Shown here: in pieces, positions 23,596-30,112 of the stretch
Position numbering within the stretch: the stretch's first letter is position 1
Layout of the letters: each line of letters starts with the position of its first letter
Source of the DNA: Syntrophomonadaceae bacterium
GTDB lineage: Bacteria > Bacillota > Syntrophomonadia > Syntrophomonadales > Syntrophothermaceae
NCBI GenBank assembly: GCA_012719535.1
Contig: JAAYAC010000146.1
Coordinates: 10,337 to 74,336 of the forward strand
DNA length: 64,000 nucleotides
Direction: 5' to 3'
Made by a program: the position numbers and the translations under genes
The notes under the pieces: model-generated
Seen by the model: the letters and a program-made list of their open reading frames with translations, nothing else
Database searches by the model: none
Told to the model about the DNA's origin: nothing

Positions 23596-24299
23596 CCGGT
23601 TATCCTCTATCTTAAAGACCACCGGGGCATCGGCATGGTTACCGGCGAGGCCGGTTCGGGTAAGACTTCTTCTTTACGGGCTCTGGCGGCTTCTTTGCAT
23701 CCTTCTTTGTACAGGGTGGTGTATTTCCCCCTGTCTACCATCACCGTGAATGATTTCTACCGGGGCCTGGCTTTTAATCTGGACCTGGAGGCCACTTTCC
23801 GCAAGGTGGATTTGTTCAAGCAGATTCAGGAGGCTATTCAAGGCCTGTACTTTGAGAGAAAGGTGGTTCCGGTTATTATCCTGGATGAGCTGCAGCTGGC
23901 CAGCACTTATTTTTTGAGCGATTTGTACCTTTTGTTTAATTTTTCGCTGGATTCTGTTAACCCGTTTGTGCTTATCCTGTGTGGGATGCCTCATCTGGCT
24001 ACCAAGCTGTCTATCAACCACCAGCAGCCTTTGCAGCAGAGGCTCATTATGCGCTACAAGATGCAGCCCCTGGCCCGCGAGGAGACCAGGGGTTACCTGG
24101 AGCATGAGATGAATCAGGCTGGAGCTAAATACCCGGTCTTGGCCGATACGGCCATAAAGGCTATGGCACGGTGAGCCGGGGCCGGCCGCGCTTAATCAAC
24201 AACCTGGCTACCACCAGCCTGATCTACGAATGCCAAAAGGGGCTTAAATACATCGATGAGGAGGCGGTCCGCCAGGCTGCCGCCGAACTGGGTTTGTGA
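23596..24299 (+). pseudogene. ExeA/TniB-like AAA+ transposition ATPase, 5'-truncated and frameshifted
   Basis: Walker A motif is GEAGSGKTS and Walker B is VIILDELQ. The reading frame ends at 24174. The expected C-terminus (GRPRLINNLATTSLIYECQKGLKYIDEEAVRQAAAELGL) continues in another frame from 24180 to 24299. Only about 13 in-frame codons precede the annotated Met before a stop at 23593. Confidence 0.75.
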
Positions 24300-24717: not shown

Positions 24718-25314
24718 CTACTTGATAACTGGGCCTCCCAGTGGGAGTATGGTCTTGCCAAAACTACCGTTAAGAATTATTCCGGCGGCCACATATATGC
24801 CAAAAATACCCGCCAACAGCAGCATGTTCCCGGCAATAGCACTGTAACTGGCACCCAGTATTCCCAGGTCCCTAAAGGCCACGATTGGGCAGGCCACGTC
24901 AAGAGCAATAACCACCATGTTCAAGGCTAGGGGCGCAGTCTTAAGATAGCCAAAAGTCCAGATAATCAAGGTAATCGACAATACCAGCCATGCCCAGCCA
25001 TCGATTCTGGCATCAATCGTCCACCCGTTCACAGCCCCGGCATACTTAACAAAGAACTCCAGACCTCCGGTAAGCATGAAGAACGCCGCAAAGAAAGTAA
25101 ATACGTTACCACCCAGTAGGTTGCCTTCAAGGATTTCAACGATCCCTACAATAAGCTGGACTATGAAACCACCGATTAGCCAACAGCCTAACAGAGGAAT
25201 ACAAGAATGGTCCACTTTACCTGTTAGAACAGCGTAAAACGTGAAGCACGCTATCGCTAGCGCGGTCAAACCTGCCGGGCCTGGATTTGCCCATCCACCA
25301 CCATGTCCTGACAT
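24718..25314 (-). CDS. acetate/succinate transporter, GPR1/FUN34/YaaH (SatP) family
   Basis: 198 aa, six predicted TM segments, N-terminal NPGPAGL motif (family consensus NPAPLGL). SD GGAGGGG upstream. Confidence 0.75.
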   Translation of the reverse strand: MSGHGGGWANPGPAGLTALAIACFTFYAVLTGKVDHSCIPLLGCWLIGGFIVQLIVGIVEILEGNLLGGNVFTFFAAFFMLTGGLEFFVKYAGAVNGWTIDARIDGWAWLVLSITLIIWTFGYLKTAPLALNMVVIALDVACPIVAFRDLGILGASYSAIAGNMLLLAGIFGIYVAAGIILNGSFGKTILPLGGPVIK

Positions 25315-25449
25315 TACAAACCCCTCCTTCTAAAATACTTACGTCTCTGTACACGATCCGCTCCAAGGTTCTGTTTGAAGATAGCCCTCCTTTCCTCAGG
25401 ATATTTTTTATGGTAAAGGATGTCTCCTTTTACCACCGTGAACCGTGTA

Positions 25450-26232
25450 CTACTTACCTTTGAACTCGGGCTTTCTCTTATCGATAAACGCCTTCATTCC
25501 CTCTTTCTGGTCTTCAGTAGCAAAACACAGGCCAAACAGGTCGGCCTCAAAGGTCATACCCCTGTCGATATCGGTTTGCATTCCCTCATTAATAGCTTTC
25601 TTACAGAAGCGTACAGCTATTTGCCCCTTGCTAGCAATCTTCTTGGCTACCTTCTTGGCGTAGTCCATCAATTCGTCAGCCGGTACCACATGGTTGACCA
25701 AGCCAATGCGCAGGGCCTCATTGGCGTCAATTATGTCCGCTGTATAACACAGTTCTTTGGCCATTCCTTCGCCTACCAGGCGCGGCAACCGCTGGGTTCC
25801 GCCATAGCCCGGAGTTATACCCAATCCTACCTCCGGTTGTCCGAACTTGGCTGCATCGGACGCTATCCGGAAGTCACAGCACATGGCCAATTCGCAGCCA
25901 CCCCCTAGGGCAAAACCATTAACTGCCGCTATAACCGGTTTATCCAGCGTCTCGATCTTGCGGAATACTCTCTGCCCCAGCATGCCAAAAGCTCTTCCCT
26001 CCATGGCATTGAGCGGCTGCATAAAGGTTATGTCGGCACCGGCGACAAAGGCTTTACCCGCCCCGGTAATGATGAGCACATCCACCTCCGCATCAGCGGC
26101 TACCATGTCGACAGCCTTGTCGATATCATTCAATGTGTCGGCGTTCAGGGCGTTTAAAGCTTTGGGACGGTTAACGGTAAGTACGGCGATATTGCCCTCT
26201 TTCTCCAACAATACGTTTGCAAGCTCCACCAC
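25450..26232 (-). CDS. enoyl-CoA hydratase (crotonase family)
   Basis: 260 aa. Oxyanion-hole motifs are ITGAGKAFVAGADI and AVNGFALGGGCELAMCCDFRIA. Confidence 0.88.
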   Translation of the reverse strand: MVELANVLLEKEGNIAVLTVNRPKALNALNADTLNDIDKAVDMVAADAEVDVLIITGAGKAFVAGADITFMQPLNAMEGRAFGMLGQRVFRKIETLDKPVIAAVNGFALGGGCELAMCCDFRIASDAAKFGQPEVGLGITPGYGGTQRLPRLVGEGMAKELCYTADIIDANEALRIGLVNHVVPADELMDYAKKVAKKIASKGQIAVRFCKKAINEGMQTDIDRGMTFEADLFGLCFATEDQKEGMKAFIDKRKPEFKGK

Positions 26233-26466
26233 AAATTACCTCCTTAATATCTATTGTTTCTGGTGTTAGGGTATGCAGCGGCGGTTGGCACTGGTAGGTA
26301 ATGATAGGTTTGATATTTATTATATGTAGCTTTCAAAACTAGCTGCTTACCCTAACGTCCTATTCGCCATTACTCCGCAAAATCCTTCTACTAATTAAAG
26401 AATTTTTCACCAGCTCCTGGCAACTGGGAATAATCAGGCTAGATACCAGTACCTCCCTCGAGAAAA

Positions 26467-27465
26467 TCAAGCTTTATACGCCACAACTGCTCCGCACGCG
26501 GAGCAATGCCCGTCTTTTTCCCCCGTGATGCTGGTAAGGTACCCGTCCCGGCGGATAAGGACATTGCCACAGCTGGGACATCGCGTGTTATTGTCAAAGC
26601 CACCTATGTTACCTACATAAACATAGTTCAAAAACCGACGGGCAATCTCCCGGGCCGCTGCTAGCGACTCAACCGGAGTGGGAGGCAGGCGAAATCGGTA
26701 GGCGGGATGATAGCGGGAGAGATGAAGTACCAGGTTCGGGTCCAGGGAGGCCAACCAGGTGGCCAGTTTTTCTATCTCTCCCGGGCTATCATTAAGACCT
26801 GGCACCAGCAAGGTAGTGACTTCGACGTGGGTTTGTTCCCGGCAAAGTTCGATCGTCCTCATGACCGGAGCCAGCCGACCCCGGCAGGTGTGCCGGTAGA
26901 AACTTTCGTTGAAGGCTTTAAGGTCGATGTTCATGGCATCTATGTATGGCAGCAGTTCGCGCAGTGGTTCCTCCTCAATATAACCGTTGGTAACCAGAAC
27001 ATTCTTGAGTCCCTGGCAATGAGCCAGCCGCGCGGTATCCAGCACGTATTCATACCACATACCCGGCTCCGAGTAGGTGTAGGCGAGCCCGAGCGAACCC
27101 TGTTCGCGAACCTCTACGGCCGTCGCTACCAGCTGCTTGGGGCTGGCATAAGACGTTGGAGGGGTACCGTGAGCCAGGGAATAGTTTTGACAGAAGCCAC
27201 AAGCCAGGTTGCAGCCTGTGGTACCCACAGACAGGATGTTACGGCCGGGGAAGAAATGATAAAGCGGCTTCTTTTCCACTGGATCAATCGCGATAGCCCC
27301 AATTTCGCCATAGTTCAGGGTATACAGTTCCCCGCCCTCGTTCTTGCGTACCCGGCACAGGCCCACTTCACCCTCCTTGATCCTGCAACCATGGGGGCAC
27401 AGGTCGCACTGAACCCGGTTGTCCCTGTTACGTTCATGCCAGAACAGTGCTTTTCTCCTAGCCAT
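26467..27465 (-). CDS. radical SAM enzyme of the AmmeMemoRadiSam type (PFL-activase-like)
   Basis: 332 aa. The CNLACGFCQN cluster motif is CxxxCxxC. There is an additional N-terminal CDLCPHGC and a C-terminal CPSCG...CSACG. It lies 2 nt downstream of the AMMECR1 fusion gene. Confidence 0.8.
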   Translation of the reverse strand: MARRKALFWHERNRDNRVQCDLCPHGCRIKEGEVGLCRVRKNEGGELYTLNYGEIGAIAIDPVEKKPLYHFFPGRNILSVGTTGCNLACGFCQNYSLAHGTPPTSYASPKQLVATAVEVREQGSLGLAYTYSEPGMWYEYVLDTARLAHCQGLKNVLVTNGYIEEEPLRELLPYIDAMNIDLKAFNESFYRHTCRGRLAPVMRTIELCREQTHVEVTTLLVPGLNDSPGEIEKLATWLASLDPNLVLHLSRYHPAYRFRLPPTPVESLAAAREIARRFLNYVYVGNIGGFDNNTRCPSCGNVLIRRDGYLTSITGEKDGHCSACGAVVAYKA

Positions 27466-27467
27466 GC

Positions 27468-28871
27468 TTATTTGTACCTCTTCACCTCGAACCGTTCTAT
27501 GGTGTATGGTTCCTCCGGGCTGATGCCGGCCTTTTGTAAGGCGATGCGCAATTGCTCGGCGACCGTGTCAACCCCTTCCAGGTCCGGCAGCAGGACACCC
27601 ACTCGCCCGTCACAGCGCACGATCACCCCGTACTTGCGCGCATCCAGCTCGTCGACACTCTTGGCCGGCTCGGGAGGTGTCAAGACATCCACGGAATAAA
27701 CCAGCTCGTCCAGTTCATCCACGGTGACCGGGGTGAAGCGGTAGTCCCTGGTCCCGGCGCTTATTGCGTTTTCCCTTATCTCCAGGGCCAGGTTATCCTG
27801 AGCCGGCCAAATGGTGCCGATGCATCCGCGCAGTTGCCCCCCTTTTTTCAAGGAAACAAAGACTCCGGCTGATTTCCTCAGCTCGTCCGGCAGGTCCGGA
27901 GGCAAGTGAACCTTCTTGTTTTCACGGATGAAGGTCTCCAGGCTCTGACGCGCCCACCTCACCAGAGGCGACTCCTGGTGCCTCGTTCGTTCTATTTCCT
28001 CGCGCCGCGCCTCTTCCAGCAGGGGCAGGAGTTCCCGGGCCTGGCTTGCACCTGCGGGAGTAAATCCAGCCGTGAGATAACCCACCCCGAACGGCCCCTC
28101 GTAAGAAAAAACCCGGCTGGATAAATCCCGGCCGTCCATGGCTCCCAGCAAAATCACCAGAGAACGGTAACCACACTCACCGGCATTCTCCGCGAGCGCG
28201 GGAGGAACCCGCAAAATTCCAATAACATCCCCTTGCTCGAGCAGCTCCTTTATCTTGTGGTCAAAGACCTTGCCGTCCGGGTGGTATGAATACGGGCCCC
28301 GGTCAAGCAAGCGATGGGACATATCCCCCGAGGCAATAACTGCTACGCGGCGTGGTACTGCAGCCGCCGCCCGGGCAATTGCCATCCCAAACGAGTAAAG
28401 TTCCTCCCTGGGGAGGAAGCCGATAGAGATAGCTACCACCCGTGTCTTCGTCAAACCCGCCTTGTCCAGGTAATACAATGGAACCAATACCCCGTGGTCC
28501 AGGCGATGATTCAGCCCGTGCCGGTCTGCCAGGTCCTCGTCCACCCCTAACAGGTCGAGTTCGGAACGGGCTGCTTCTTTAAACAATGCCTGCAGCAATT
28601 CCGGATCGGAGGGGTGAGAACTTTTCACCTCCGGGTGACCGAAATCAGCCAGGTCCCCCTCGCTGGCCGGTGTGGTCAGGACAGATAAAACGTCACGGAA
28701 AACATTGCCGTGGGGAGTAATAAAGACCAGGGTGTCCGGTTGACTGCGTTGTACCTCCCTCGCCAGCATCTTGACTCCTTCGACCGTAACCCGAGCTTCA
28801 TCCAATTGCTGCTGGCCCACCTCTGGAATAATGATAGGGGGGTGTGGCATCAAGGCTCCATATACGATCAT
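27468..28871 (-). CDS. fusion of a LigB/Memo-like class III dioxygenase-fold domain with an AMMECR1 domain
   Basis: 467 aa. The N-terminal part (MIVYGALMPHPPIIIPEVG...ITPHG...SGDMSH) resembles the extradiol dioxygenase class III fold. The C-terminal 190 aa carry the AMMECR1 signature GVFVSLKKGGQLRGCIGT. Its start overlaps the cwlD stop by 4 nt. Confidence 0.8.
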   Translation of the reverse strand: MIVYGALMPHPPIIIPEVGQQQLDEARVTVEGVKMLAREVQRSQPDTLVFITPHGNVFRDVLSVLTTPASEGDLADFGHPEVKSSHPSDPELLQALFKEAARSELDLLGVDEDLADRHGLNHRLDHGVLVPLYYLDKAGLTKTRVVAISIGFLPREELYSFGMAIARAAAAVPRRVAVIASGDMSHRLLDRGPYSYHPDGKVFDHKIKELLEQGDVIGILRVPPALAENAGECGYRSLVILLGAMDGRDLSSRVFSYEGPFGVGYLTAGFTPAGASQARELLPLLEEARREEIERTRHQESPLVRWARQSLETFIRENKKVHLPPDLPDELRKSAGVFVSLKKGGQLRGCIGTIWPAQDNLALEIRENAISAGTRDYRFTPVTVDELDELVYSVDVLTPPEPAKSVDELDARKYGVIVRCDGRVGVLLPDLEGVDTVAEQLRIALQKAGISPEEPYTIERFEVKRYK

Positions 28872-29608
28872 GGTCCCGCCTCCTCGACACTATACTTGAC
28901 AATTCCCGAAAATATAGCATAGGCCACGCGGGCCTGGTAAGCCTCATCGGACAACAGGGCTTCTTCGCGAGGGTTCGACAGAAAGCCCACTTCTACGATT
29001 ACTGCGGGCATCCTGCTTCGATCCGTTATGAAGTAGGTCGCTTGCTTGGCCTCCCGCTTAGTATTCCCTAAAACACGTTTCAACTCCACCTGAACACAGT
29101 GGGCTATCTGCTTGCCTGCTTCACTGTCCCCACAGTAGAATACCTGCGCGCCGCTCCAGCGAGGACACACATCGGCATTGCAATGTATGCTTATATAAAG
29201 GTCGGCCCGTGCTTGGTTGGCCTTCTCTATCCTTCTCGCCAGGTCCTGCCTCTTTCTTTCGAGAAGACTTCCTTGAAATCCTTCACTGGCCAGGTCAGAA
29301 TCATCTTCCCGCGTCATTACCACTACCGCTCCGGCCTGGCTCAGGTAAGCGGCCAGGCGTTTGGCTATTGCCAGGTTTACATGTTTCTCCAGGGTGCCGT
29401 TTTTTCCAATAGCTCCCGGGTCTATTCCCCCGTGCCCCGGGTCGATAACCACAACCTTGTTGGCCACCGCGTACGATAAGACGGTGTAGTCTTCATCGGC
29501 GGTAACCTGCAGCCCCCCCAAGAAAAGGAATATAGCCAGCACGGTAACTACCACTGTGCTCGCCTTCTTCCGGGGAACAACGATTACCCTGAACCCCCGC
29601 ACAACCAT
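28868..29608 (-). CDS. cwlD: N-acetylmuramoyl-L-alanine amidase, CwlD-like (germination-specific)
   Basis: 246 aa with an N-terminal TM segment and Amidase_3 motifs VVIDPGHGGIDPGA and ISIHCNA. It sits after rplM-rpsI, as cwlD does in Bacillus. Confidence 0.8.
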   Translation of the reverse strand: MVVRGFRVIVVPRKKASTVVVTVLAIFLFLGGLQVTADEDYTVLSYAVANKVVVIDPGHGGIDPGAIGKNGTLEKHVNLAIAKRLAAYLSQAGAVVVMTREDDSDLASEGFQGSLLERKRQDLARRIEKANQARADLYISIHCNADVCPRWSGAQVFYCGDSEAGKQIAHCVQVELKRVLGNTKREAKQATYFITDRSRMPAVIVEVGFLSNPREEALLSDEAYQARVAYAIFSGIVKYSVEEAGP

Positions 29609-29690
29609 CCCCTCCAGCTGCCGGTCAAAGGAACGGCCATTCTTTCACTATACTTGTATATGCTGAGTGAGGATGGTTTATAAGGATCAT

Positions 29691-29718
29691 AAAAATAAAG
29701 GAAGGTACGAGACCTTCC
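29691..29718 (-). terminator. rho-independent terminator after rpsI
   Basis: Minus strand reads GGAAGG-TCTCGTA-CCTTCC-TTTATTTTT, starting directly after the rpsI stop codon. Confidence 0.8.
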
Positions 29719-29719
29719 T

Positions 29720-30112
29720 CTAGCGTTTCGAGTATTGCGGGGCTTTACGAGCCTTATGCAGACCGTATTTTCTCCTTTCTTTCATGCGCGGGTCCCTGGT
29801 CAGGAAACCGGCTCTTCGCAACTGCTGCCTCAAATCAGGGTTGGCACGCACCAACGCCCGGGCTATACCCAACCGGATTGCCCCGGCCTGGCCCGTTATC
29901 CCGCCGCCGTTTACCCTGGCCACCACGTCAAATCTTCCCGCCAGCCCAGTAAGCTCAAGAGGCTGCATAACTATAAGCCTCCGGGTCCGGTTAGGGAAGA
30001 AGTCTTCAAACTTTCGCCCGTTGATGATGATGTTACCGTCACCCGGCAGCAATCTGACCCGGGCTACGGCAGTCTTTCTCCTGCCAGTTCCCCAGTACTG
30101 AACCTTCGCCAT
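29720..30112 (-). CDS. rpsI: 30S ribosomal protein S9
   Basis: 130 aa. N-terminus is [21 protein letters not shown] and the C-terminus is [11 protein letters not shown]. Confidence 0.97.

Follow-up and report, generated by a model that had tools for sequence, protein, structure and literature searches.

A two-gene AmmeMemoRadiSam system behind cwlD in Syntrophomonadaceae: a conserved position and, probably, a general role

AMMECR1 and Memo, two proteins with links to disease, are conserved all the way from archaea to humans. To our knowledge, human AMMECR1 and MEMO1 have no agreed biochemical function; in the AmmeMemoRadiSam system, their relatives are joined by a radical SAM (rSAM) enzyme. 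Burroughs et al. (2019, J Biol Chem 294:10211; cited in PMC7159879) reported genomic contexts that combine Memo, AMMECR1 and rSAM. A search of the literature turned up no report of a link between AMMECR1 and cwlD, the gene for a germination-type N-acetylmuramoyl-L-alanine amidase, and no determined function for the AmmeMemoRadiSam system.

In both Bacillus subtilis and Clostridioides difficile, cwlD presumably lies downstream of rplM-rpsI, and in B. subtilis it is, as we take it, followed by other genes. The C. difficile gene (CD0106) is under the control of sigmaE, whose promoters in that organism carry ATA at -35 (PMC3789822). Here, we describe a locus in which cwlD is followed by an AmmeMemoRadiSam gene pair, an arrangement found in the window (the whole stretch of 64,000 nucleotides that was analysed) and in its relatives, and compare it with about 250 genomes, including an even sample of the phylum. 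The features are as follows, in window coordinates:

26407..26423, minus strand: weak terminator-like hairpin 3′ of the rSAM gene (7 pairs, poor T tail; a weak call)
26467..27465, minus strand: AmmeMemoRadiSam radical SAM enzyme gene (TIGR04337 match, cysteine conservation)
27468..27974, minus strand: C-terminal AMMECR1 domain of the fusion, the 'A' component, residues 300-467 plus stop codon (HMM, PDB, conservation)
28017..28871, minus strand: N-terminal LigB/TK2203-like metal domain of the fusion, the 'B' component, residues 1 to about 285 (HMM, conservation, AlphaFold)
28868..29608, minus strand: cwlD, germination-type N-acetylmuramoyl-L-alanine amidase with an N-terminal membrane anchor (TIGR02883 and PF01520 matches)
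29655..29683, minus strand: sigmaE-type promoter-like element of cwlD (conserved motif, PWM, resemblance to C. difficile)
29696..29722, minus strand: intrinsic-terminator-like hairpin directly 3′ of the rpsI stop codon (11 pairs, T-rich tail)
29720..30112, minus strand: rpsI (ribosomal protein S9), the upstream neighbour and last of a truA-rplM-rpsI string (ORF, PF00380, relatives)

Genes and domains of the locus

The CwlD protein comprises 246 aa when read from 29608; an alternative GTG start at 29602 has better ribosome-binding-site spacing and would give 244 aa. It scores 232.3 bits with the CwlD equivalog model TIGR02883 (cut-off 221.55) and 178 bits (1.8e-52) with the Amidase_3 domain PF01520, which places its likeness to cwlD of C. 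difficile and B. subtilis at the equivalog level. The stop codon of cwlD and the start codon of the next gene overlap by 4 nt, sharing ATGA.

This next gene (28871..27468, minus strand) encodes a fusion protein of 467 aa, in which a LigB domain (PF02900, 150 bits, residues 6-265, above the cut-off) precedes an AMMECR1 domain (PF01871, 153 bits, residues 304-465). The protein-A model TIGR04335 gives 132.5 bits over residues 303-466 (cut-off 99) and the protein-B model TIGR04336 gives 29.4 bits, barely above its cut-off of 26, while the Pfam Memo model PF01875 reaches 21.8 bits, below its gathering score of 27. In contrast to a system with a separate Memo-type gene, the B component here is fused to A and is LigB/TK2203-like by Pfam and by fold. 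The AlphaFold model of the N-terminal domain (pLDDT 94) best matches the structure of TK2203 from Thermococcus kodakarensis (PDB 5HEE, TMt 0.85), an uncharacterised class III extradiol-dioxygenase-like protein that is also the best sequence match (E 4e-13) but stands alone rather than as part of a fusion; 2-aminophenol and HPCA dioxygenases follow with TMt 0.70-0.80, and MEMO1 structures with merely 0.54-0.59. The AMMECR1 domain has PDB matches in 1ZQ7 and 1VAJ.

Among 97 homologues, H10, H54, D125, D183, S185 and H186 of the fusion are identical throughout, H126 and C233 are kept in 96, G234 in 95, and the motif SYEGPFGVGY (256-265) in at least 95. At position 232, 81 homologues have E, 15 have Q and one has M; we take E232 to occupy the usual third-ligand Glu position of a LigB-type 2-His-1-carboxylate iron site, in which the invariant H10 and H54 would be the histidines, and the near-invariant Cys233 presumably resembles the Cys ligand of Memo. 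In the LRGCIGT motif (347-353) of the AMMECR1 domain, L347, R348, G349, C350 and G352 are invariant, I351 is present in 94 homologues and T353 in 96. Although PF02900 and the LigB fold are common to the N-terminal domain and the class III (LigB-type) extradiol dioxygenases, O2-dependent cleavage of aromatic rings is unlikely, because the hosts, judged from the titles of related records, are strict anaerobes. The architecture itself is not special to this locus: it is common, with more than 7,600 database proteins, and already named, these being annotated 'AmmeMemoRadiSam system protein A(/B)'.

The rSAM gene follows the fusion after a spacer of 2 nt (TAA-GC-ATG). Its product of 332 aa scores 330.8 bits with TIGR04337 (cut-off 220) and contains CNLACGFCQN, of which the CX3CX2C cluster (C85/C89/C92) is identical in 70 of 70 homologues. 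Four cysteines near the N-terminus (C20, C23, C27, C37) form a motif that is also invariant in these homologues, and the C-terminus carries a zinc ribbon (CxxC...CxxC at 296/299/321/324); both are additions relative to the pyruvate formate-lyase (PFL) activating enzyme (PDB 3C8F, 8FO0), the closest solved relative, which has a radical SAM core of the same type. PFL-activating enzymes are the sole relatives in the PDB (E 3e-6), RlmN being a weak match. The glycyl-radical activase models are not reached (TIGR02493, 54.1 bits against a cut-off of 231.75; TIGR02494, 43 bits against 174.35) and, unlike for PFL activase, no glycyl-radical enzyme partner is encoded at the locus.

With its genes adjacent and co-directional and with LRGCIG, CX3CX2C and the metal-site histidines present, the pair is an ordinary AmmeMemoRadiSam system in its two-gene version. 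The first-pass annotation had named the germination-type amidase cwlD, a LigB/Memo-like domain fused to an AMMECR1 domain with LRGCIGT, and a radical SAM enzyme with CNLACGFCQN, and had assigned the latter two to the AmmeMemoRadiSam triad with A and B apparently fused. Its coordinates, overlap, spacer and motifs are all as it described, each domain call passes a curated HMM cut-off (TIGR02883 and TIGR04335 to TIGR04337 among them), and a genome-wide profile search finds A, B and rSAM once each, all at this locus, with no separate Memo gene.

A conserved sigmaE-type promoter of cwlD

Upstream of cwlD, rpsI (PF00380 match at G000:C145:40059-40421; relatives at the same position are 75-92% identical) is followed by a hairpin, AGGAAGGT-CTCGT-ACCTTCCT and then TTATTTTTAT, which has a similar counterpart in the same place after rpsI in the L005 locus. 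Given this terminator-like hairpin after rpsI, cwlD probably does not just belong to the rplM-rpsI transcript. Between the two lies a promoter-like element, with a -35 of TTATAAA (29683-29677), a 14-nt spacer and a -10 of CATATACA (29662-29655), located 54 nt before the ATG. The first-pass annotation had proposed looking for a sigmaE or sigmaG promoter in 29609-29690, and the element found there is kept as ATAww-N14-GCATATAWA in 37 of 41 related loci, 21-92 nt upstream of cwlD. A weight matrix built from the related loci, with the window's own site left out, gives that site 22.7 bits, and in a version restricted to core columns it ranks first across the 2.49-Mb genome.

This arrangement agrees with the sigmaE logic reported for C. 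difficile, with ATA at -35 (PMC3789822) and a CATA-type -10. Both sigmaE (402 bits) and SpoIVA, the latter intact, occur in the window's genome, where spoIVA is preceded by TTATATT-14-AATATATT. By this resemblance to the consensus, the promoter would be of the sigmaE type; its strong conservation in Syntrophomonadaceae is new here. The matrix was also tried on the genome as a means of listing the sigmaE regulon, but 18 matches of at least 15 bits against 10-11 in shuffled sequences indicated that it recognises cwlD promoters too narrowly for a regulon to be defined with it.

How far does the transcript extend? In the window's clade, cwlD, the fusion and rSAM are probably one transcript, because of the ATGA overlap and because neither a conserved promoter nor a conserved terminator separates cwlD from the fusion. 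No sigmaE-like motif was found between these two genes in the related loci searched. A sigmaA-like candidate inside cwlD (28940-28911) was set aside, being absent in the nearest relatives and probably a chance match in coding sequence. The transcript would begin at the sigmaE-type promoter, by read-through past the rpsI terminator, or both; on its far side, rSAM is followed by the weak hairpin and a gap of 234 nt, after which comes a crotonase gene. Since the sole recognisable upstream promoter is of the sigmaE type, with translational coupling to cwlD in addition, expression of the fusion in this clade could be confined to the mother cell. The first-pass picture of a sporulation-expressed operon behind rplM-rpsI therefore survives in part: cwlD has a sigmaE-type promoter-like element of its own, but a terminator-like hairpin divides it from rpsI.

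Linkage and presence across the phylum

The first-pass annotation had also suggested surveying whether the linkage to cwlD recurs in relatives. It does, in about 40 of 42 informative loci of the family, and in the phylum sample the order cwlD, fusion, rSAM is found in 55 of 93 genomes, from 35 families. Recurrence of this order throughout the phylum, beyond close relatives, is new here; the pair is habitually found downstream of cwlD in this phylum. An earlier view from 80 loci, whose distant matches came mostly from other phyla, had confined the linkage to Syntrophomonadaceae and was dropped after the even sampling. Fusion and rSAM are adjacent in most of about 100 loci examined.

How does this linkage compare with that of its neighbours? 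When both genes are on one contig, cwlD lies within 7 kb of rSAM in 55 of 70 cases (79%) and rpsI within 7 kb of cwlD in 64 of 77 (83%), with no significant difference between the two (Fisher p = 0.53). In many families, unrelated genes are inserted between cwlD and the fusion (transporter-, methyltransferase-, racemase- and regulator-like ORFs, assigned by reading rather than by HMM), and in one family cwlD is inverted. Outside the phylum the neighbourhoods of the pair are heterogeneous (ilv genes, transporters, metK), and no constant third partner was found in them.

Within the family, the junction of cwlD and the fusion measures -4 to 52 nt in most loci, and the distance from rpsI to cwlD 108-6301 nt. 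The former junction is tighter and more constant, which counts against reading the link as positional.

The phyletic pattern is as follows. At least five genomes (L006, L011, G074, G098, G117), taking the assemblies as they stand, have neither sigmaE nor CwlD and have kept the rSAM gene; in three of them (L006, G098, G117) it still follows rpsI at short range. L006 and L011, the two tested, are also without SpoIVA, and their fusion gene is visibly retained. Acetobacterium and Megasphaera, non-sporulating and both without SpoIVA, carry the fusion, which occurs in non-sporulating phyla too, and in a control panel the rSAM family has matches in archaea and Thermotoga. Conversely, of the 120 genomes that carry a CwlD-like gene, 27 have no rSAM gene, and in the control-panel profile search the B. 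subtilis genome gave no TIGR04337 match. Overall, rSAM and CwlD are found together in the phylum sample with an odds ratio of 4.2 (p = 0.0008), a figure that ignores kinship.

Why the pair stays behind cwlD

We think it fairly probable that the link to cwlD is positional and that the system has a general role, together with a probable co-transcription with cwlD in this clade. The association would reflect an ancient synteny block (truA-rplM-rpsI-cwlD-fusion-rSAM-arg operon) that dates from early in the ancestry of the phylum and has since been breaking up slowly, so that cwlD and the pair would be old chromosomal neighbours with no shared pathway. The link is read as positional because it is as conserved as that of rpsI and cwlD, which has no functional meaning, and the role as general because the system has outlasted the loss of sporulation and cwlD in some lineages. 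The pair would perform a general, oxygen-independent, radical-SAM-dependent modification, its substrate being acted on jointly by the rSAM enzyme, the metal domain and the cysteine C350 of AMMECR1.

It had been suggested in the first-pass annotation that the set has a role in the spore or its cortex. In such a scheme the pair would belong to the sigmaE regulon, be made in the mother cell with CwlD and modify a spore component (cortex peptidoglycan, lipid or coat precursor), and non-sporulating lineages would have retained it for a second, general use. The ATGA overlap, the conserved sigmaE-type element as the sole upstream promoter, the gene order shared by 35 of 64 rSAM-bearing families and the co-occurrence of rSAM with CwlD all speak for this, as does one family (f14; G072, G154) in which cwlD and rSAM are 2-6 kb apart though 137-167 kb from rpsI. 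We nevertheless consider it unlikely, and slightly more so in the stricter form of a true mother-cell regulon member, co-transcribed with cwlD and acting on a component of the spore envelope: the linkage is not stronger than that of rpsI and cwlD, insertions and an inversion part cwlD from the pair, and a good sigmaA-like promoter stands ahead of the fusion in lineages whose gap is larger (L090, 11/12; L100, 10/12). Moreover, the system persists in the genomes lacking sigmaE and CwlD and beyond spore formers, and is missing from the 27 CwlD genomes; even the model spore former B. subtilis has no rSAM-family match in the control panel. On balance, the suggested role in spore or cortex is thus unsupported.

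Could the pair instead serve the translation apparatus, lying after truA-rplM-rpsI since it modifies RNA, for example a base of tRNA or rRNA? Burroughs et al. 2019 reportedly propose nucleotide-base or isoprenoid modification for Memo-AMMECR1-rSAM systems, the former of which would fit. Where cwlD is absent, rSAM follows closely after rpsI (L006, G044, G098, G117; within 5 kb in L006, G098 and G117), and elsewhere (G139, G054, f17 family) rSAM is 2.5-3.8 kb downstream of rpsI, and no cwlD of the same orientation intervenes. By reading, ribosomal protein L25/Ctc precedes the fusion in two Tissierellaceae loci and mnmA precedes rSAM in Natronincola; the zinc ribbon and the weak match to RlmN point the same way. 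However, cwlD, which is no translation gene, sits there too, so that position says little on function; the neighbourhoods outside the phylum are heterogeneous, and no RNA-binding domain was found by HMM in the proteins of the locus, making this account improbable. A functional tie to the downstream arg operon, that is, to arginine or ornithine metabolism, draws on argC, which lies downstream of rSAM on the same strand in many loci of the family and the phylum. In the window, however, a crotonase gene, a SatP-like gene and a mobile-element remnant part the pair from argC, and the argument from old synteny applies equally, so we regard such a tie as very improbable.

Had a firm tie to cortex synthesis emerged, it would have helped greatly in understanding AmmeMemoRadiSam chemistry, and membership in the sigmaE regulon, if true, would be the first phenotype of and regulatory handle on the system. 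The block behind rplM-rpsI in this phylum is a caution for genome-context inference, as it probably conserves adjacency without shared function. The natural 'deletion experiments', in which sporulation and cwlD have been lost and the system kept, argue for a general role of AmmeMemoRadiSam in anaerobes.

Gene identities and junctions at the cwlD locus

The spore-cortex amidase gene cwlD is followed on the same strand by a gene for a 467-aa protein that joins a LigB-like (B) domain to an AMMECR1 (A) domain, and then by the gene for the AmmeMemoRadiSam radical SAM enzyme (rSAM); the latter two genes form a two-gene AmmeMemoRadiSam system (the pair).

Features of the cwlD locus
30586-30125, minus strand: rplM, open reading frame
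30112-29720, minus strand: rpsI, open reading frame
29722-29696, minus strand: terminator-like hairpin, directly 3′ of rpsI
29683-29655, minus strand: candidate sigmaE-type promoter of cwlD (TTATAAA 29683-29677, 14 nt, CATATACA 29662-29655)
29608-28868, minus strand: cwlD, 246 aa
28871-27468, minus strand: LigB-AMMECR1 fusion gene, 467 aa
28106-28077, minus strand: SYEGPFGVGY motif (fusion residues 256-265)
27465-26467, minus strand: rSAM gene, 332 aa
27405-27357, minus strand: N-terminal four-cysteine motif (rSAM residues 20-37)

The first-pass annotation of these genes is sound, and its domain assignments were all borne out by HMM searches: CwlD matches TIGR02883 (232.3 bits; cut-off 221.55), rSAM matches TIGR04337 (330.8 bits; cut-off 220), and the fusion matches PF02900 (LigB; 150 bits, residues 6-265), PF01871 (AMMECR1; 153 bits, residues 304-465), TIGR04335 (132.5 bits; cut-off 99) and TIGR04336 (29.4 bits; cut-off 26). 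The junctions that it described are seen directly in the sequence, as ATGA is common to the cwlD stop and the fusion start, and TAA-GC-ATG leaves a 2-nt spacer between the fusion and rSAM genes; each of these two starts is preceded by a good Shine-Dalgarno sequence. The placement of these genes behind rplM-rpsI also holds, but given the terminator-like hairpin after rpsI, cwlD is probably more than a mere extension of the ribosomal-protein operon. In the genome to which the window belongs (2.49 Mb in 203 contigs, 98% complete), the A, B and rSAM components are each present in a single copy, all at the cwlD locus, and no separate Memo gene was found.

In the window, the rSAM gene and argC are kept apart by two genes at 24718-26232, one for a crotonase (NF004475, 428 bits) and one for a SatP-like acetate transporter. 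Many relatives have argC closer behind the rSAM gene, or with just the crotonase gene between, and the two genes look like lineage-specific insertions into a conserved block. Just upstream of the arg operon, a 179-aa open reading frame (23635-24174) reads as part of a transposition-helper P-loop ATPase (GEAGSGKTS).

Conserved residues of the fusion protein and rSAM

The fusion architecture is ordinary and already annotated: databases contain more than 7,600 relatives, and the 120 best are all about 464 aa long, contain PF02900 and PF01871, and are named 'AmmeMemoRadiSam system protein A' or 'A/B' in their sources. Among 97 homologues, down to 41% identity, residues H10, H54, D125, D183, S185 and H186 are invariant, as are L347, R348, G349, C350 and G352 of the AMMECR1 motif LRGCIGT; H126 and C233 are kept in 96 and G234 in 95. 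The LigB-like domain has, close to its end, the motif SYEGPFGVGY, each position of which is kept in at least 95 of the 97, from several phyla; the motif may belong to an interdomain or active-site element. Position 232, where a LigB-type iron site would be expected to have its carboxylate ligand, is Glu in 81 homologues, Gln in 15 and Met in one; in the B domain, a Glu-Cys dyad stands at the place where Memo uses Cys. A high-confidence AlphaFold model of the fusion (pLDDT 94, pTM 0.83) is matched best by TK2203 (5HEE; TMt 0.85), followed by class III extradiol dioxygenases (TMt 0.70-0.80) and more weakly by MEMO1 (TMt 0.54-0.59), so that the B domain as modelled is LigB/TK2203-like in fold.

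Besides CX3CX2C, rSAM has an N-terminal motif of four cysteines (C20, C23, C27 and C37; CX2CX3C-X9-C) that is invariant in all 70 homologues and may be an auxiliary cluster or zinc site, while a C-terminal CxxC...CxxC zinc ribbon is present in 60 and missing in 10. Its solved relatives are PFL-activating enzymes only (E 3e-6). At four homologous loci (L053, L054, L059 and L060), a small Cys-rich open reading frame of about 95-108 aa (...NCEYFPCHKGL...) lies on the opposite strand directly after the rSAM gene; it recurs in several Clostridia genomes.

A candidate sigmaE-type promoter before cwlD

The first-pass annotation had pointed to 29609-29690 as the place to look for sigmaE or sigmaG promoters, and the candidate element lies within it. 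In 37 of 41 related loci, G-CATATA-W-A occurs 21-92 nt (mostly 33-55 nt) upstream of the cwlD start, with ATA exactly 14 nt 5′ of it (T in 35 and A in 34 of the 37). Because the CATAYA core served as the search anchor, its invariance is in part built in, which is not so for the flanking G, the ATA or the constant spacing. The window's copy scores 22.7 bits with a matrix built without it, and with the core-column version of the matrix it ranks best in its whole genome. In Clostridioides difficile, cwlD is under sigmaE control, and sigmaE and sigmaK promoters are alike at −10 and differ at −35, where sigmaE promoters have ATA and sigmaK promoters AC (PMC3789822). With ATA at −35, the predicted cwlD promoter has the sigmaE architecture.

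Genes for sigmaE (402 bits) and an intact SpoIVA are present in the same genome. Its spoIVA (contig C39, 240-290) has TTATATT-14-AATATATT about 100 nt before the start, sigmaE-like in architecture, with A, not C, at the first −10 position. In Syntrophomonas palmitatica (genome G004, locus L034), spoIVA is split into three consecutive frames of 299, 122 and 119 aa (C21:28513-29983), a split due either to decay of this sporulation gene or to errors in the draft sequence; the fusion gene still has cwlD next to it there.

Across the related loci, the sigmaE-type motif was never found between cwlD and the fusion gene and occurs only before cwlD. A sigmaA-like site inside cwlD was considered as a promoter of the pair; it is unconserved in the nearest relatives. 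The pair thus lacks a recognisable promoter of its own in the window's clade, where it is probably co-transcribed with cwlD, from the sigmaE-type promoter, by read-through of the rpsI terminator, or both.

Reach of the gene order and the question of a sporulation role

The adjacency to cwlD recurs widely in relatives. Among 44 family-level loci, cwlD stands directly before the fusion gene in all informative cases but two, with a gap of −4 nt in six (the window, L005, L016, L024, L026 and L032) and of 14-52 nt in most others; the rpsI-cwlD gap spans 108-6301 nt. The phylum was also sampled evenly, with 151 genomes: 107 have the rSAM marker, 120 have a CwlD-like gene and 93 have both. In 55 of these 93, cwlD precedes the rSAM gene in the same orientation by no more than 7 kb (chance expectation about 0.1%), and these 55 cover 35 of the 64 families having the rSAM gene. 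All 20 representative phylum regions show the order cwlD, fusion, rSAM, many of them with truA-rplM-rpsI before and argC after. Both the sigmaE-type promoter of cwlD and this gene order across the phylum are real, and the searches made turned up no report of either.

Does this order reflect a shared function? The linkage is NEVERTHELESS probably not functional. Counting same-contig cases in the 151 genomes, rpsI has cwlD downstream of it within 7 kb in 64 of 77 (83%), and cwlD has the rSAM gene downstream of it at this distance in 55 of 70 (79%), with no significant difference (p = 0.53). To our knowledge, nobody supposes that CwlD partners with ribosomal protein S9 in function, so conservation of this degree counts as background for the chromosomal block. 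In 10 of the 20 regions, cwlD and the fusion gene are separated by 0.5-2.8 kb, and the intervening frames read as unrelated (methyltransferase-, chromate-transporter-, oligopeptide-transporter-, racemase- and MntR-like). In one family (locus L104 of G026, and genomes G116 and G156), cwlD lies on the opposite strand between rpsI and the fusion gene, an in-place inversion uncoupling it from the pair. Two lineages with a large gap have good sigmaA-like promoters before the fusion gene (L090, 11/12; L100, 10/12), near-consensus TTAACA-17-TATAAT and TTGATA-17-TAGAAT about 100 nt before its start, which suggests independent vegetative expression of the pair there.

The phyletic pattern points the same way. 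Two Syntrophomonadaceae genomes (loci L006 and L011) were found to have no cwlD or sigmaE-type motif at the site and no true CwlD, SpoIVA or sigmaE anywhere, and both keep the fusion gene; in L006 it starts 256 nt after rpsI and the rSAM gene is also kept, while the L011 contig stops short of any possible rSAM gene. In the phylum sample, G074, G098 and G117 are without CwlD and sigmaE and keep the rSAM gene, which follows rpsI by 1.5 kb in G098 and 4.7 kb in G117, and the rSAM gene is missing from 27 of the 120 genomes that have a CwlD-like gene. The fusion is present and SpoIVA absent in Acetobacterium and Megasphaera; the rSAM family has matches in archaea, Thermus and Thermotoga and none in B. 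subtilis. Beyond the phylum, the genes around the pair read as heterogeneous (L25/Ctc with tmk-holB, ilvN-ilvC-leuA, mnmA with nnr, metK). The spore- or cortex-related role that had been proposed for the pair is thus unsupported. A real sporulation role is unlikely, and it keeps a small share of the probability because the fusion is translationally coupled to cwlD in the window's clade, no other promoter is recognisable for the pair, the cwlD-fusion junction is tighter than rpsI-cwlD within the family, and the rSAM gene co-occurs with CwlD (odds ratio 4.2, p = 0.0008, phylogenetically uncorrected).

The association of cwlD with the pair is best read as an old synteny block. In the literature searched, no paper gives a determined function for the AmmeMemoRadiSam system or a link between cwlD and the pair. 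Memo-AMMECR1-rSAM contexts were the subject of a 2019 study by Burroughs and colleagues, which PMC7159879 cites. That study reportedly ties such systems to nucleotide-base and isoprenoid modification. In the window's clade, cwlD, the fusion and the rSAM gene would form one transcript, which sigmaE would drive in the mother cell, and the pair may perform a modification by oxygen-independent, radical-SAM-dependent chemistry that involves both the metal domain and the invariant cysteine of AMMECR1.
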